Below, piece by piece: positions 27,929-58,660 of a DNA stretch of 64,000 nt. The position numbers were made by a program, and so were the translations under genes. Origin of the DNA: Escherichia phage UGJNEcP3. The stretch lies in the sequence record OV876907; one strand, written 5' to 3'. The stretch's first letter is position 1; each line of letters opens with the position of its first letter. The notes beneath the pieces were generated by a model. That model did no database searches, was not told the DNA's origin, and saw nothing but the letters and a program-made list of their open reading frames with translations.

Positions 27929-28056
27929 AATTTCCTCAATATGTTAGGTTCTACAATTATTCTATCATAGAACCTGTTAAGCATGGACTGATATTTATAG
28001 AATGAAATTCAGTCCGACCATAATAACCAAAAACAGAGTACAGATTATTTGAATTT

Positions 28057-29507
<1,451 letters not shown>

Positions 29508-46009: not shown

Positions 46010-46506
46010 TAGTAAAGGTCCTCAGAGTAAAGTTCTTTTTCACTACCACCGCGTTCAATACGAACTTGATTAGCATACGTTGCAATAATCATTGCTTCTT
46101 CACGAGTCCAATAATTTGAATATTGGTCAATAAAACCTTGGTCGTCACCACAAACATGGTCGGACACAAGTTTATCACTTACTTGGTCAAGCACTTCTGC
46201 CATATCTTTGGAATAATGACGTGCACCCGGAATAATAAGTGTTCCACCGTCTTTTAACTTAAAGCGATTGGCTGCACATACAATTCGACGTTGGTATTTT
46301 TCATTGTTATTCCAATGTGCAATCTGCCAACAGATTTCAGGAACCTCTTCTAAAACATCCTCTTCCGAATATTCAGTGTAATCACCGTAGGCTCGTAATT
46401 TAGCTGCAAGACTTTCAGGTGTCTCACGAGAAAGGGCTTTATCCAACAAGGCCATACGGTCTTTAAAGGATAATTCTTTACCTTTTAATGGATTCATTTG
46501 AACCAT
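46009..46506 (-). CDS. hypothetical protein
   Basis: 165 aa ORF. Confidence 0.4.
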
Positions 46507-46823
46507 CCTTTAACACGTTGCCATAAAGTTTTCTGTTGGGCTTTGTTAACACCTATTGAACGAATAACTGGTTGTGATTCCTGGTATTCTTTGTAGTCTG
46601 CTTTATAGACTTCATAAGCGGCAGGAACAAAAGTGCTGATTGCGGCCATGAAATTCTTGCGAATTCCCATAGAAGCTTCAGAACCACCACGGATGATTAG
46701 GTATTTACCCGCTTTAATCTTAACAATAGTGCCGAGATAAGCGCCGTGGTACCAAATATCCCAACCTTCTTGAGTAGGTTCTACACAACGACGAAGTTCA
46801 TTAACAATATTCAGCTTGTTCAT
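46494..46823 (-). CDS. hypothetical protein
   Basis: 109 aa ORF directly downstream of motA. Confidence 0.4.
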
Positions 46824-46837
46824 AATAATTTCCTCAG

Positions 46838-47473
46838 TCAGATAATTGCGTTGGTTACGGTTTTGATAACTTCAGATGATACGTTTTGGAAGTCGATATA
46901 AGTATTCTTACCACCAGTCTTAATCTTAACATCAAGATTCAAGGAAGTAAACACTTGTTTTTCTTTATCAGTCATATTATAACCGAAAATACGCATCATT
47001 CCATCACGACGGACTTCGATTTGACGAATACCATTGGTACGTTTAGCGAATCGAACTTCAAGGTTGCTACGGTTTTCAGCAATTTCACGAATCTCGATAC
47101 GGTCTTCTAATAAAGCTTTAACTTCATCAGCCAGTGTTACCATTTCAGGAGTAACACCACGTGAACTGCGCGTTTTACGTTTTTCCAACATCTCTGGAGC
47201 ATTTTCAGAAGCGAACAGGTCTGCAGCTTTTTGAACGAGGTCCATTGCTTCACCTGTAGCCACTAAACCATCACCGGATTTTTCGATGAATCCTTTCTTA
47301 ATCAATACACCGATGTTAGAGTTAACTACCGCAGCACTAAATTGCTCATTCAGGGCTTCACGGACTTCGCCTGAAGTGATGAAGTTATGCTTGATGATAT
47401 GTACTAAGATTGAAGCAGTTTTTTCATTCAGGGCGTCTTCAGAAGCTTTGATGATATAAGTAATTTTAGACAT
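46838..47473 (-). CDS. motA: middle transcription activator MotA
   Basis: 211 aa; MSKITYIIKAS...NSNIGVLIKKGFIEKSGDGL...TNGIR...MRIFGY matches recalled T4 MotA. Confidence 0.85.
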   Translation of the reverse strand: MSKITYIIKASEDALNEKTASILVHIIKHNFITSGEVREALNEQFSAAVVNSNIGVLIKKGFIEKSGDGLVATGEAMDLVQKAADLFASENAPEMLEKRKTRSSRGVTPEMVTLADEVKALLEDRIEIREIAENRSNLEVRFAKRTNGIRQIEVRRDGMMRIFGYNMTDKEKQVFTSLNLDVKIKTGGKNTYIDFQNVSSEVIKTVTNAII

Positions 47474-47508
47474 TTTGTATCTCCGATAACCATTTATTTG
47501 ATAGGTCT

Positions 47509-47537
47509 ATAGTATCATGTTTAAAGCAGATGTAAAC
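47509..47537 (-). promoter_or_regulatory. T4-type early promoter for motA
   Basis: Minus strand GTTTAC, 17 nt, TACTAT, then AGACCTATCAAATAAATGG leader. Confidence 0.5.
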
Positions 47538-47560
47538 ACTTTTTCACTAAACCCAAAAAA

Positions 47561-47576
47561 GGAACCCGAAGGTTCC
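47561..47576 (-). terminator. C(UUCG)G hairpin terminator
   Basis: Minus strand GGAACC-UUCG-GGUUCC followed by UUUUUUGGGUUU. Confidence 0.6.
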
Positions 47577-47681
47577 TTACTTTTTAAAGTGAGCTGCTAT
47601 TAAACCTATAGCTAGGCCTGTGGCCAGGCCTAGGATAATAGCAAAGATACAGAGTAACAAGAACTCGACTCCAAGGCTCAT
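47577..47681 (-). CDS. small hydrophobic peptide, 34 aa (absent from ORF track)
   Basis: ATG overlaps the gene 52 stop (ATGA); sequence MSLGVEFLLLCIFAIILGLATGLAIGLIAAHFKK is a single predicted transmembrane helix. Confidence 0.4.
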   Translation of the reverse strand: MSLGVEFLLLCIFAIILGLATGLAIGLIAAHFKK

Positions 47682-49057
47682 AGAGACTCCAAATCTTTAA
47701 CATACTCAGTTACAACATCAGTGGTTTTCCAATATTGATGCTCTTCTTTCTTAGCCTTGGCTTCGAGGGCCAGTTTCTTGGCTTCGTCAGAAGTGATATG
47801 GAAAATGTTCATGGCCACTAGTTTATCGGCATATTCGCCATAGACTTTATTACCGGTCAATTCTTCGGTTAAAACCTTACGGGTCTTACCTTGGATAACC
47901 ACTACACCATCAATAACATCTTTGATAAATGTGGCTTTAGCCAATGCTAGTTTGAAAGCTTCTTCGGTTTCGATGATTTTACCATCAATACGTTTTTGTA
48001 CAAAGGTCTTACGGACCTCAACGAAATCACGAATCAGTTCAACTACATCTTCGTAAACCTTAAGTTTACCTTTTTCATTAATGACGGTCAGGTTTTGTGA
48101 ACGACGTTCGATTAACCCGAAGTCCTTCATGAGTTTTTCGTGTTTCTTATCTTCATCGGTAGGCAATTCATATTCTTTACGAATCTTAACCTTGAAGCCA
48201 AAACCGTTCTCGTCACAGTCATCATCATATGTGATGTACCCTTTGTCTTCCAGAGGGTCTAATACCTTAGCCACATATGTTTCACGGTCATATTTGTATG
48301 GGATTTCCGTGATATGCATTTGGGTTCGAGATGTGAACTTATACGTTCCACGAATCTCATAACTACCTGGTTCAATTTCAACAACTTCACCTCGGAATTC
48401 AGGATAAGCCACTTTAGGCTTGGTTACTCGTTTTTCCTGAAGAACTTGCAATACAGCTTTCTTAACAGAATCAAAACTATGAGGAAGAATATTAGTTGCA
48501 TAACCAGTTGCAATACCGGAAATACCATTAAGAAGAACAGTAGGAATAATAGGCAGATAAAAAGCCGGTGGCTTATGTTCGACATCCGCATGAACCGGAG
48601 CATATTCTGTGTCCTTATAAACTTTTGCAAAGTTACTTCCGATACGAGCAAAAATATAACGAGAGGCTGCAGCCTTTTGAACCAATCGAGAACCGAAGTT
48701 ACCTTGACCGTCTAACAATGGATAGTTGTTGTTCCATGTGTTAGCCATCAAAGCCCCTGCTTCCTGAGCAGAACCTTCACCATGGTGATATCCAAGGTCG
48801 GCTACGCCACCAGCAATAGAAGCTAGTTTGTGGAATTTTTCTTTATTACCACGAGCCATATCAAGACAACGAGCAACTACAAAACGTTGTACAGGTTTAA
48901 AGCCGTCAATCATATTTGGAATGGCTCGGTTTTCGACAGTATACATTGCATAAGCCAATGCTTCGTTGTCGATAATACTTTTTAAGTCACGACGAGTGAA
49001 AGAATCATCGTAAACATCTAAAGCCTGTTTAAAAAGGGTATCAATTACATCAGCCAT
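47678..49057 (-). CDS. 52: DNA topoisomerase II medium subunit gp52
   Basis: 459 aa; T4 position between ndd and motA; GyrA/ParC-like N-terminal region. Confidence 0.75.
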   Translation of the reverse strand: MADVIDTLFKQALDVYDDSFTRRDLKSIIDNEALAYAMYTVENRAIPNMIDGFKPVQRFVVARCLDMARGNKEKFHKLASIAGGVADLGYHHGEGSAQEAGALMANTWNNNYPLLDGQGNFGSRLVQKAAASRYIFARIGSNFAKVYKDTEYAPVHADVEHKPPAFYLPIIPTVLLNGISGIATGYATNILPHSFDSVKKAVLQVLQEKRVTKPKVAYPEFRGEVVEIEPGSYEIRGTYKFTSRTQMHITEIPYKYDRETYVAKVLDPLEDKGYITYDDDCDENGFGFKVKIRKEYELPTDEDKKHEKLMKDFGLIERRSQNLTVINEKGKLKVYEDVVELIRDFVEVRKTFVQKRIDGKIIETEEAFKLALAKATFIKDVIDGVVVIQGKTRKVLTEELTGNKVYGEYADKLVAMNIFHITSDEAKKLALEAKAKKEEHQYWKTTDVVTEYVKDLESL

Positions 49058-49061
49058 AATT

Positions 49062-49202
49062 TTACCATACTAGTGAATGAATAGCCATAATAACATCGGA
49101 AATAAAAAGCACAACTTGGATAAGTCCGAACATTACTCCATAATACAGTGCTACTAATAAAGCAGCAAGGGCTACTGAGTAGCCCAAGATTTTCTTAATC
49201 AT
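49062..49202 (-). CDS. small hydrophobic peptide, 46 aa (absent from ORF track)
   Basis: ATG overlaps the stop of the upstream 53 aa ORF; TAA lies 4 nt before the gene 52 ATG; predicted membrane helix. Confidence 0.4.
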   Translation of the reverse strand: MIKKILGYSVALAALLVALYYGVMFGLIQVVLFISDVIMAIHSLVW

Positions 49203-49356
49203 TTTTAATCATCTTAAGTAAACCGACAGAAGTAGAAAGAACCCAGCCAATAAACAGAAAACTTAAGAATACCGGACCAGGGGCCCACACACCTAAAAAG
49301 AAGCAAACTGAACAGACTATAGCCATAATAAGTTCAATAAAAACTAGGATAACCAT
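49195..49356 (-). CDS. small hydrophobic membrane protein, 53 aa (absent from ORF track; Ac-like size and position)
   Basis: GAGGAAAATATG start context; MVILVFIELIMAIVCSVCFFLGVWAPGPVFLSFLFIGWVL...; T4 has the 51 aa membrane protein Ac just upstream of 52. Confidence 0.4.
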   Translation of the reverse strand: MVILVFIELIMAIVCSVCFFLGVWAPGPVFLSFLFIGWVLSTSVGLLKMIKND

Positions 49357-49443
49357 ATTTTCCTCATTAGCGTCCGAAGACGCCTTTAGTTTTAAGATTG
49401 TTACGATAGAACTGCATCACATGCTCGTTATGGAAATTACTCA

Positions 49444-49893
49444 TTAGTATGCCTGCAGAATGAATTTAAAGTTATCAGCCAACATGCGGTTCATTTCTTC
49501 CAGTGTCTGGAGGTCGGAACTATGATTGCGGGTGAAAGCCATTGCAATTTGACCCTTACCAAAACCGGTGGTCAGAGGTTTCATCTTAGAAGCTGGTACA
49601 TAAAGAACTTCATACACAACACCGTTCACTGCCATGGTGCGAGCTGATTGAGAACGTTTCTTACGAATGTTAGCCACGATGCCATCAAGACCTTGGGCCG
49701 AACGTTGATTACCGACATAAAAACGAGCAGCTACGACACGAGAATCAGCTCCACCTTTAACAAAGAAGTAGAAGCCTGGCTGAGCAGAGATTTCTTTAGA
49801 AGGTTTACCATTTTGGTATTCACCGTTCTTAACATAAGCAACAGTAGTAGCACCAGCAGACAGAACGTTACGGCGAGTCATATAAGTATTCAT
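49444..49893 (-). CDS. ndd: nucleoid disruption protein Ndd
   Basis: 149 aa; [10 protein letters not shown]...[15 protein letters not shown]...AFTRNH...[20 protein letters not shown] is near-identical to recalled T4 Ndd. Confidence 0.9.
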
Positions 49894-49970
49894 ATCAATT
49901 TCCTCAGTAGATTAATGTTTTGTTATCCGGTCAACGAGAACCATTATAACATGATTCTCGAGGTTGTAAA

Positions 49971-50548: not shown

Positions 50549-50659
50549 TCAGAAGTTAAAGAATACACGTACATGGTCAATCATAAAAACGATTGGGAAA
50601 ATGCTCAATACCATTAACAACACAAACATGTTCCAAATTGCTTTAAGTAAGTTTTTCAT
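50549..50659 (-). CDS. small hydrophobic peptide, 36 aa (absent from ORF track)
   Basis: MKNLLKAIWNMFVLLMVLSIFPIVFMIDHVRVFFNF; first gene after promoter module at about 50671-50700. Confidence 0.35.
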   Translation of the reverse strand: MKNLLKAIWNMFVLLMVLSIFPIVFMIDHVRVFFNF

Positions 50660-50804
50660 AATCATCTCCATTAGTTGATAGGTCTATAGTATCATGATTA
50701 ATGGAGATGTATACCGATTTATGCCAATTTCCACAACAATAAACTAAAACATACGCAAATCACTGGGATACAGGCCATCCAAATAAGGCACCACGTTTTG
50801 CTAC

Positions 50805-58399: not shown

Positions 58400-58660
58400 T
58401 TAATCAAATCGAATGGTCGACTTTTTAAAGAATAGCCCAGAACAAACTGTTCCTTCAACCCTTTTACCTGTCGGACCTACAGCAATAAAGCCTGTACGTT
58501 GGAAATCATCTTCAGAGCAGCCAAATAGGTTGTATCCCGTGATTTGGATTTGTTCATAGCCATTTGCATCCAATACACGGGTAGCATTATCAGCATCAGT
58601 ACATCCAACCAGTGAAACTGCTAATACGAGAGCTGCAATAGAACGATTAATATATTTCAT
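58400..58660 (-). CDS. predicted lipoprotein of unknown function
   Basis: 86 aa; signal peptide with lipobox LVGCT (MKYINRSIAALVLAVSLVGCTDADN...); three further Cys in the mature part. Confidence 0.5.
   Translation of the reverse strand: MKYINRSIAALVLAVSLVGCTDADNATRVLDANGYEQIQITGYNLFGCSEDDFQRTGFIAVGPTGKRVEGTVCSGLFFKKSTIRFD

Follow-up and report, generated by a model that had tools for sequence, protein, structure and literature searches.

Three small open reading frames (ORFs) that flank gene 52 are probably genuine accessory genes that encode very small proteins of the inner membrane, carried in a T-even early transcription unit with the gene order ndd, stp, a 53 aa gene, 52.1, 52 and a 34 aa gene. 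The window analyzed here, a stretch of 64,000 nucleotides from Escherichia phage UGJNEcP3 (OV876907), is 100% identical in sequence to Escherichia phage UGJNEcP4 (OV877765.1), a Dhakavirus. All three ORFs lie on the minus strand exactly where an earlier note had placed them, at 49195-49356 (53 aa), 49062-49202 (46 aa) and 47577-47681 (34 aa), and this placement matches the slots of Ac, 52.1 and MotA.1, respectively, in T4. The strong hydrophobicity ascribed to the products was also borne out, with GRAVY values of 1.76, 1.75 and 1.80 in the same order. When all six frames of the whole window were considered, 8 of the 198 ATG-initiated ORFs of 30-59 aa had a GRAVY of 1.5 or more, and these three are the only ones among the eight that are located outside ORFs of at least 80 aa. 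The hydrophobicity and placement of the three ORFs exceed what is expected by chance.

The three reading frames are kept as proteins in related phages, and records of such phages annotate all of them. That they are genuine small-protein genes is supported by codon-position patterns and pN/pS ratios for the 34 and 46 aa ORFs, and, for the 53 aa ORF, by a frame that stays open and gapless down to 31% identity and holds a fixed motif. A rival explanation is that AT-rich intergenic DNA contains these frames by chance and that they are never expressed. Their very short length would fit, as would the lack of any reported proteomic detection for the counterparts in T4, where the transcripts of motA.1, 52.1, ac and stp belong to the early class and LC-MS did not detect the proteins (PMC9697503, supplement). 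Conservation, codon positions, family membership and signals all speak against this explanation, which is effectively refuted by the comparative data and to which we give practically no weight. The ORFs had been described as unannotated, which is true for the 46 aa ORF, absent from OV877765.1, and not for the 34 and 53 aa ORFs, which are listed there as hypothetical proteins. Judged by their family matches, all three fall into families that had been catalogued before in T4-like phages, and the finding is ordinary rather than new, since the 46 aa ORF corresponds to T4 gp52.1 and the 53 and 34 aa ORFs match phrog_9347 and phrog_16377 over their full length and are annotated in GenBank.

The extent of the transcription unit was deduced from promoter and terminator assignments, which, like the Shine-Dalgarno (SD) assignments, are consensus matches only. 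An early-type sigma-70 promoter-like site (TTTACA-16-TATAAT with TG; 49943..49970, minus strand), which with 11 of 12 matching positions is the best in the scanned region, is located upstream of ndd and presumably marks the start of transcription. The first gene of the unit is ndd (49444..49893, minus strand), annotated as encoding an Ndd-like nucleoid disruption protein, followed by the 25 aa gene stp (49367..49444, minus strand), whose ATG overlaps the ndd stop codon (ATGA) and lacks a good SD (-2.5 kcal/mol). The stp product scored 72.1 bits against PF08133 (cut-off 25) and is identical to residues 1-25 of T4 Stp. This gene, 10 nt upstream of the 53 aa ORF, is absent from the OV877765.1 annotation as well as from the earlier note. 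At the other end an intrinsic terminator-like hairpin, AAGGAACC-TTCG-GGTTCCTT and then a T run (47553..47578, minus strand), begins inside the stop codon of the 34 aa gene, and an early promoter-like site for motA (TTTACA-16-TACTAT with TG; 47509..47536, minus strand) is again a consensus match. The genes from ndd to the 34 aa ORF appear as a single early unit flanked by a promoter-like site and a terminator-like hairpin.

The promoter-early stem-loop (PeSL) cassettes (PMC2839356) likewise combine a terminator hairpin with an early promoter, and a cassette of this kind is formed here by the hairpin and the motA promoter-like site directly after the 34 aa gene, and extra ORFs of 71-75 aa are inserted at this PeSL-like site in JS10, L006, L008 and L041. 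As in the hyperplastic regions of T4-like genomes (PMC2839356), genes are swapped cassette-wise between genera. The swaps on the upstream side, where Ac, the 53 aa gene or others are found, appear to join at the conserved start of 52.1 (ATGATTAA) and at stp rather than at a PeSL. Searches of NCBIfam and PADLOC gave no meaningful matches.

The 46 aa ORF (49062..49202, minus strand) matched PF24129 (DUF7396) with 79.9 bits (cut-off 27) over residues 1-46 of 46 and phrog_3595 over its full length (E = 1e-25), and it shares 44 of 46 residues with T4 gp52.1 (UniProt P18922). It is of equal length to the T4 protein, and its gene is separated from gene 52 by 4 nt and overlaps the upstream gene by 8 nt, exactly as in T4. 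By these matches it is T4 gene 52.1 itself, with no difference of substance, merely missing from the OV877765.1 annotation. Toward the C-terminus it carries the conserved motif VLFISDVI..SL[VI]W, and an alignment of 34 distinct sequences contains the family motif LF(I/L)xDV(I/M)....SL(I/V)W. For 52.1, which had been taken earlier for a single transmembrane helix, a single-sequence AlphaFold2 model gives one helix of 44 residues, which is compatible with more than one membrane topology.

The gene was found in 891 phage records, and in more than 40 related loci, where gp52 identity goes down to about 63%, it directly precedes gene 52 on the same strand, at a distance of 4-11 nt. Its pN/pS ratio is 0.16 in frame against 0.69 and 3.3 off frame, values which indicate that 52.1 is under strong purifying selection. 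Across Dhakavirus, Tequatrovirus and Gaprivervirus types it is more conserved than gp52 (96% against 78%, and 85-87% against 65-67%). Also the synonymous divergence between window and T4 is lower for 52.1 (pS 0.33) than for gene 52 (pS 0.70), which hints at some constraint at the nucleotide level. A Mot-box-like candidate for a middle promoter (TGCTTTA-N12-TATTAT, a consensus match; 49140..49164, minus strand) is located inside 52.1. The pattern occurs 18 times in the window against 5.6 expected, and the site in 52.1 is present in some relatives including T4 and absent from many. This candidate could give rise to a separate gene 52 transcript that is unable to express 52.1. A search of the available literature found no functional study of 52.1 or motA.1.

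The 53 aa gene (49195..49356, minus strand) has its own SD (GAGG) and matched phrog_9347 over residues 1-53 of 53 (E = 3.4e-25). The single transmembrane helix previously proposed for its product does not agree with our prediction, which is a two-helix membrane hairpin (H2-22 and H28-52). The predicted turn carries a G22-x-W24-x-P26 motif in which G22, W24 and P26 are invariant in 11 sequences with 22-89% identity to the window protein, and Glu8 in helix 1 is conserved in the closer homologues. The gene was found in 76 records, and the homologues give near-gapless alignments at 22-58% identity; a search for homologous proteins with the 53 aa query returned only 4 near-identical clusters. For the distant group pN/pS is 0.40 in frame against 1.1-1.65 off frame. 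Within Dhakavirus the in-frame value of 0.64 is not separable from those of the off frames (0.28-0.58), and coding support for this frame therefore rests on the distant homologues. A PDB profile search with the family gave only designed “Pizza” propeller repeats, which we regard as spurious, no stretch passing alone, and the hairpin model had no Foldseek match in BFVD at E <= 0.001.

The earlier note had pointed at the T4 membrane protein Ac as the equivalent at this position. Like Ac (51 aa), the 53 aa protein is of near-equal size, ends in ..ND* overlapping 52.1 and is predicted to form a two-helix hairpin in the same slot. The equivalence fails at the level of sequence, as the 53 aa ORF had no match to phrog_2501, the Ac family, at E <= 1, a profile that both T4 Ac and NC-G Ac matched. 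Remote homology between the two families was rejected as well (hhalign probability 0.3%), and the signature motifs differ, being G-x-W-x-P in the 53 aa family and TGE[TS]SV.SQA in Ac. Because the two genes occur together in JS98-type Dhakaviruses, with co-occurrence seen in NC-G, JS98, IME281, L008 and L019, the 53 aa gene is not the Ac orthologue, and the analogy is one of size, position and predicted fold only.

A functional replacement of Ac by a non-homologous protein would be another matter. Expression of Ac sensitizes E. coli to acriflavine, and a block of AcrAB-TolC has been proposed (bioRxiv 10.1101/2025.06.30.662393); the 53 aa protein might similarly be a membrane hairpin that alters drug efflux or permeability and sets acridine sensitivity. 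The likenesses in slot, length, 8-nt overlap and predicted fold are in line with such a replacement, and so is the lack of both Ac types in the window and of the NC-G type in the genome. We nevertheless regard it as rather unlikely, given that the protein has no sequence or profile similarity to Ac and that the presence of both genes in JS98, NC-G, IME281 and others argues against redundancy.

The 34 aa gene (47577..47681, minus strand) has an SD (GGAG) within the end of gene 52, and its product is predicted to be a single hydrophobic helix, as was originally proposed, with an acidic N-terminal end in which E6 is invariant and a basic C-terminal end (HFKK). It matched phrog_16377 over residues 1-34 of 34 (E = 2e-21) and no other PHROG, and a 32 aa form of the Gaprivervirus type also matches phrog_16377 (E = 1.7e-9). 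The in-frame pN/pS ratio of 0.07 compares with 0.72 and 6.2 in the other frames, and of the 16 variable sites 11 are third codon positions whereas no second position varies. An overlapping 39 aa ORF in an alternative frame (47584-47703) was rejected, having off-frame pN/pS values of 0.7-6.2 and a GRAVY of -0.25. With tblastn the 34 aa peptide had no match in the phage collection, which we ascribe to the short query and the low-complexity filter; once the filter was switched off, a local tblastn located it in every Dhakavirus locus. An exhaustive HMMER search returned a single cluster among 1.84 billion representatives and reached no distant homologue. From these searches the family is a narrow one, comprising Dhakavirus and the 32 aa form of the Gaprivervirus type.

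As T4 MotA.1 (49 aa, phrog_3487) does, the 34 aa ORF starts with an ATGA on the gene 52 stop codon, encodes a hydrophobic protein, and closes the unit ahead of the terminator, with motA coming next. It differs from MotA.1 in being shorter, with one helix, and unrelated in sequence, and a relationship between the two families was rejected (hhalign probability 0.45%). A hydrophobic ORF is present on the gene 52 stop codon in 34 of 50 loci, and these ORFs fall into about seven sequence-dissimilar groups as judged by eye.

The overlaps and close spacings described earlier were found at all three junctions: gene 52 and the 34 aa gene share an ATGA, the 46 aa stop codon and the gene 52 ATG are 4 nt apart, and the end of the 53 aa ORF runs 8 nt into the 46 aa ORF (AATGATTAA). 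Also the initiation context pointed out before the 53 aa ORF, GAGGAAAATATG, proved to be strong, the SD/anti-SD energy of -6.3 kcal/mol being in the top 7% of the ATGs of the strand. In comparison 52.1 has no SD (-1.4 kcal/mol), and that of gene 52 (47678..49057, minus strand; topoisomerase II medium subunit, 459 aa) is weak (-2.8 kcal/mol). The same pattern is seen in 43 loci, where the median SD energy is -6.2 kcal/mol at the upstream ORF and -9.3 at the downstream ORF, compared with -1.4 at 52.1 and -2.8 at gene 52, and the layout in these loci is conserved, with overlaps of -8, -4 or -1 nt and gaps of 4-11 nt before gene 52. Since a good SD is found at the 53 and 34 aa ORFs and not at 52.1 or gene 52, the latter two appear as a coupled chain. 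The translational coupling to gene 52 that had been suggested is supported by this SD pattern together with the overlap geometry, and from the junctions we infer that it would take place by reinitiation, such that 52.1 would be translated mainly, and gene 52 partly, by ribosomes passed on from the 53 aa gene. A point against this is the Mot-box-like candidate in 52.1, from which gene 52 could be transcribed separately.

One may ask whether the small ORFs act chiefly in cis, as translation devices that bring ribosomes to the SD-poor gene 52 or cover the terminator, with peptides that are irrelevant. The lack of SD sites at 52.1 and gene 52 in most loci, the conserved overlaps and spacings, the terminator that begins at the 34 aa stop codon and the low pS of 52.1 mentioned above would all fit this explanation. 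[quoted passage not shown] Furthermore the 34 aa gene is located downstream of gene 52 and feeds no ribosomes to it, and the 53 and 34 aa genes have good SD sites of their own. We find it improbable that translation is the main purpose of these ORFs.

The peptides could also be tied to the topoisomerase itself, either because the 53 aa, 52.1 and 34 aa products insert into the membrane co-translationally and thereby tether the mRNA, or because they bind gp52, so that the T4-type topoisomerase II would be synthesized or kept at the membrane. The close spacing of 52.1 and gene 52 in more than 40 loci is consistent with this, as are the hydrophobic ORFs of dissimilar groups on the gene 52 stop codon and the conservation of 52.1 above that of gp52 across coliphage genera. 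Against it, a T4 deletion of the GT7 type (165,257-168,510) that removes ac and stp and truncates 52.1 leaves the phage viable (PMC9712115), and no hydrophobic mini-ORFs adjoin gene 39, encoding the large topoisomerase subunit, in the window. Moreover the downstream ORF is missing from many loci, and small hydrophobic ORFs are common elsewhere in the early regions of T4 (ndd.2-ndd.6). A tie to the topoisomerase is in our judgment doubtful. Equally doubtful is the broader idea that the flanks of gene 52 are a conserved docking site for coupled hydrophobic micro-proteins, composed of a hairpin protein with an SD, the SD-less 52.1, the SD-poor gene 52 and a tail peptide with an SD on the ATGA, the tail position having been occupied independently by the seven or so dissimilar groups. 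If such a docking site were functional, co-translational insertion of the peptides would bring the synthesis or assembly of gp52 to the membrane. Another possibility is that 52.1, whose sequence is more conserved across coliphage genera than that of gp52, serves the topoisomerase as a partner in the membrane.

Collectively, we prefer to see the three products as accessory modulators in the inner membrane. The peptides would insert into the inner membrane of E. coli early in infection, the 34 aa protein with its N-terminus out and its C-terminus in according to the positive-inside rule, and the 53 aa protein as a hairpin whose two termini face the cytoplasm. Rather than being enzymes they would bind or perturb host envelope proteins, as has been proposed for T4 Ac, and the three genes would be dispensable in the laboratory and swapped as cassettes between T-even genera. 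Parts in host takeover, exclusion or drug sensitivity, as suggested earlier, are plausible.

The practical upshot is annotation repair. The UGJNEcP4 record lacks genes 52.1 and stp, which should be entered, and its two “hypothetical proteins” can be named small membrane proteins of phrog_9347 and phrog_16377. For a T4 specialist the result holds no surprise; the features of note are that 52.1 is conserved to an unusual degree and that a chain of coupled starts leads into gene 52. Dhakaviruses that carry the 53 aa gene alone (UGJNEcP4) or together with an Ac-like gene (JS98, NC-G) constitute a clean natural experiment on the role of T4 Ac and its neighbors, and because both gene combinations occur within the group, acridine sensitivity and effects on efflux would be directly comparable.

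The genes discussed here are all carried on the minus strand and are transcribed in the order ndd (49893-49444), stp (49444-49367), a 53 aa ORF (49356-49195), a 46 aa ORF (49202-49062), gene 52 (49057-47678), a 34 aa ORF (47681-47577), a hairpin terminator and motA (47473-46838). An earlier note had proposed the three ORFs as unannotated genes coupled to gene 52, and we confirmed both their positions and their junctions: the start of the 34 aa ORF and the gene 52 stop overlap as ATGA, gene 52 begins after a 4-nt spacer that follows the 46 aa ORF, this ORF shares 8 nt (AATGATTAA) with the 53 aa ORF, and GAGGAAAATATG stands before the latter. Escherichia phage UGJNEcP4 (OV877765.1; Straboviridae, Tevenvirinae, Dhakavirus) matches the region 47400-49500 at 100% identity, and other Dhakaviruses (e.g. 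JS10, WG01, E33, NC-G) match it at 94-97%. The stp gene, which the earlier note missed, overlaps the ndd stop as ATGA, matches PF08133 with 72 bits and encodes 25 aa identical to residues 1-25 of T4 Stp, which is annotated as activating PrrC, an anticodon nuclease of the host.

The three-ORF observation is correct and not a product of chance. The GRAVY values are 1.76, 1.75 and 1.80 for the 53, 46 and 34 aa ORFs, and a value of at least 1.5 was found for only 8 of the 198 ATG-initiated ORFs of 30-59 aa in six frames of the whole window; outside ORFs of at least 80 aa, these three were the only ones among the eight. Among 36 small ORFs in gaps between larger ones, the few other hydrophobic examples are a 40 aa ORF near ndd (50549-50671, minus strand; GRAVY 1.40), at about whose position OV877765.1 has an annotated hypothetical protein, and two of about 21 aa. 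One 21 aa ORF in such a gap (27995-28060, minus strand) reaches 2.19. Immediately upstream of gene 39, an 86 aa ORF (58400-58660, minus strand) opens with a lipoprotein-like signal (..LAVSLVGC..).

Judged from codon-position and pN/pS patterns, together with the conservation of distant 53 aa homologues, all three ORFs are protein-coding, the evidence being strongest for the 34 and 46 aa ORFs. Among eight distinct Dhakavirus alleles of the 34 aa ORF, 11 of the 16 variable sites fall in codon position 3 and none in position 2, and pN/pS is 0.07 in frame compared to 0.72 and 6.2 off frame; this pattern also rules out an alternative, overlapping 39 aa frame. The corresponding values for the 46 aa ORF are 0.16 in frame and 0.69 and 3.3 off frame. 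Within Dhakavirus the 53 aa ORF gives a weak signal (pN/pS 0.64, no better than off frame), but its homologues, 46-54 aa long, are encoded by phages of Enterobacter, Edwardsiella and Kosakonia, a Gaprivervirus and a Mosigvirus. They align nearly gap-free with the protein of the window, at 22-58% identity and with G22, W24 and P26 invariant, and for these distant relatives the pN/pS values are 0.40 in frame and 1.1-1.65 off frame. The reading frames are conserved in related phages.

By sequence the 46 aa ORF is T4 gene 52.1: 44 of its 46 residues are identical to T4 gp52.1, and it matches Pfam PF24129 (DUF7396) with 79.9 bits (cut-off 27) as well as phrog_3595. The gene is present in 891 phage records, and 43 fetched loci carry a hydrophobic ORF with a poor Shine-Dalgarno (SD) sequence 1-11 nt 5' of gene 52, mostly a recognizable 52.1 homologue. 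Compared with T4, 52.1 is 96% identical and gp52 78% (pN 0.029 versus 0.13; pS 0.33 versus 0.70), and in Gaprivervirus-type loci the identities are 85-87% and 65-67%, while Enterobacter and Klebsiella-type phages show the reverse (33-57% versus 63-78%); the loci compared include L005 (T4), L022 and L055. The lower synonymous divergence of 52.1 may reflect recent exchange or nucleotide-level constraint. The 459 aa gp52 of the window carries a 17-residue N-terminal extension relative to T4 (MADVIDTLFKQALDVYDD...; 48998-49057, minus strand), and other Dhakaviruses (loci L007, L008 and L036, and Bp7) have a 442 aa form starting MELN.., giving two start variants in one genus.

The earlier note placed the peptides at positions equivalent to those of T4 small membrane proteins, which holds for the slots (motA.1, 52.1 and ac, and stp as well) and not for the identity of the outer two genes. 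T4 ac (51 aa) also overlaps 52.1 by 8 nt, but T4 Ac and the Ac-like gene of NC-G belong to phrog_2501, to which the 53 aa protein, a full-length member of phrog_9347, has no match. We rejected the 53 aa protein as Ac, since profile-profile comparison of the families gave a probability of 0.3% and both genes coexist in NC-G, JS98, IME281 and loci L008 and L019. No Ac homologue was found within the window, and the source phage is not among the 38 records with NC-G type Ac. The single-sequence AlphaFold2 model of the 53 aa protein (pLDDT 83) is a two-helix hairpin (H2-22, turn at W-A-P-G-P, H28-52), and therefore not the single transmembrane helix that had been assigned to each ORF; 52.1 is modelled, also from a single sequence, as one continuous 44-residue helix (pLDDT 94), which may either span the membrane once or fold back. 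Shared ..ND* ends, an apparent copy of the 52.1 start, and 52.1 and stp remnants at the junctions suggest that a cassette was inserted by recombination at short conserved junctions. The ..ND* ending on AATGATTAA is common to three unrelated upstream genes, namely T4 ac, the 53 aa gene and a 46 aa relative, and the junction into 52.1 (A[T/C]GATTAAAAATGATTAAGAAA; 49195-49215, minus strand) resembles a tandem copy of the 52.1 start. In an NC-G ORF (L004 1459-1566) the start of 52.1 (MIKK) is joined to what is left of stp, and JS98-type loci (L008/L019, about 2055-2123) keep a 52.1 fragment (aa 4-24) 3' of the Ac-like gene.

T4 motA.1 (49 aa) likewise overlaps the gene 52 stop as ATGA, but it belongs to phrog_3487, to which the 34 aa protein has no match, and with a profile-profile probability of 0.45% we rejected their identity. 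Over its full length the 34 aa ORF falls in phrog_16377; it is found in every Dhakavirus locus and, in a 32 aa form, in Gaprivervirus-type phages (annotated in EAWsc9). Searching 1.84 billion representatives exhaustively yielded one cluster, and the family is therefore narrow. In 34/50 related loci a hydrophobic ORF of 23-77 aa starts at the gene 52 stop or no more than 10 nt from it, mostly with an ATGA overlap and a strong SD, and these ORFs form, by eye, about seven sequence-dissimilar groups. This repeated filling of the slot, the close proximity of 52.1 to gene 52 and its better conservation than gp52 relative to T4 speak for a rival, less probable reading in which the peptides would be functionally tied to the topoisomerase; against this, hydrophobic ORFs are absent beside gene 39, encoding the large subunit, and a T4 deletion (165,257-168,510) that removes ac and stp and truncates 52.1 is viable (PMC9712115). 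A purely cis-acting role of the small ORFs in translation is weakened by their strong amino-acid constraint and by the fact that unrelated occupants of the slots are all hydrophobic.

An early-type promoter-like site (TTTACA-16-TATAAT with extended TG, 11/12 match; 49970-49943, minus strand) lies upstream of ndd. At the 34 aa stop codon begins a GC-rich hairpin of 8 bp with a T run behind it (47578-47553), 3' of which lies a second early promoter-like site, for motA (47536-47509); in several lineages including T4 the hairpin follows the last small ORF by 0-6 nt. This arrangement (47509-47578) is similar to the PeSL cassettes reported from T4-like phages, and here JS10, L006, L008 and the T4-like L041 carry additional ORFs of 71-75 aa as insertions. 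The SD/anti-SD energies are strong for the 53 and 34 aa genes (-6.3 and -5.9 kcal/mol, about the top 7% of the strand's ATGs) and weak for stp (-2.5), 52.1 (-1.4) and gene 52 (-2.8). Across 43 loci the medians are -6.2 for the ORF 5' of 52.1, -1.4 for 52.1, -2.8 for gene 52 and -9.3 for the ORF at the gene 52 stop, and the overlaps and short gaps are conserved, a pattern which supports, rather than proves, the proposed coupling as a chain of reinitiation that would run from the 53 aa gene via 52.1 to gene 52. Within 52.1, a candidate Mot-box-like site (49164-49140), shared by T4 and some but not all relatives, could provide a separate middle transcript for gene 52.

In T4 the motA.1, 52.1, ac and stp transcripts are of the early class and the proteins were undetected by LC-MS (PMC9697503, supplementary file 4); no functional study of 52.1 or MotA.1 was found in the literature searched. 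Ac renders infection acriflavine-sensitive, sensitizes E. coli to acriflavine and ampicillin when expressed alone, and is a predicted two-helix membrane protein proposed to impair AcrAB-TolC (bioRxiv 10.1101/2025.06.30.662393; repeated in PMC13250531). The analysis shows constraint on the coding sequences, the helical and hydrophobic nature of the products, an operon arrangement and the geometry of coupling; membrane insertion, topology and mode of action are inferred. Most likely the three products would be very small proteins of the inner membrane, made early and non-essential, that may, by analogy with the proposal for Ac, bind or perturb host envelope components. The 34 aa protein is probably N-out/C-in because of its acidic N-terminal end and C-terminal HFKK, and the 53 aa hairpin probably has both ends inside because of its C-terminal KMIK and short turn. 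Conserved polar residues in the hydrophobic stretches (E6 and C11 in the 34 aa product, E8 in the majority of 53 aa homologues, D36 of 52.1) are candidates for contacts. A 109 aa ORF adjoining motA (46494-46823, minus strand; annotated arn.4 in JS10) has matches in about 1000 phage records and, judged by length, position and genus range, may be the homologue of Gp94/Emp of Mosigvirus AV110, which was recently reported to perturb MreBCD-dependent cell-wall synthesis (bioRxiv 10.64898/2026.09.14.751387).

The earlier interpretation is correct in kind and not in novelty, the 46 aa ORF being T4 52.1 and the other two belonging to catalogued families with existing GenBank annotations. All three genes are annotated in E33, NC-G, IME540 and Bp7, and 52.1 in JS10; in OV877765.1 the 34 and 53 aa ORFs stand as hypothetical proteins, and "unannotated" applies there to 52.1. 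The practical outcome is a pair of annotations that this record lacks, 52.1 and stp, together with a testable prediction concerning acridine sensitivity in Dhakaviruses with versus without an Ac-like gene.
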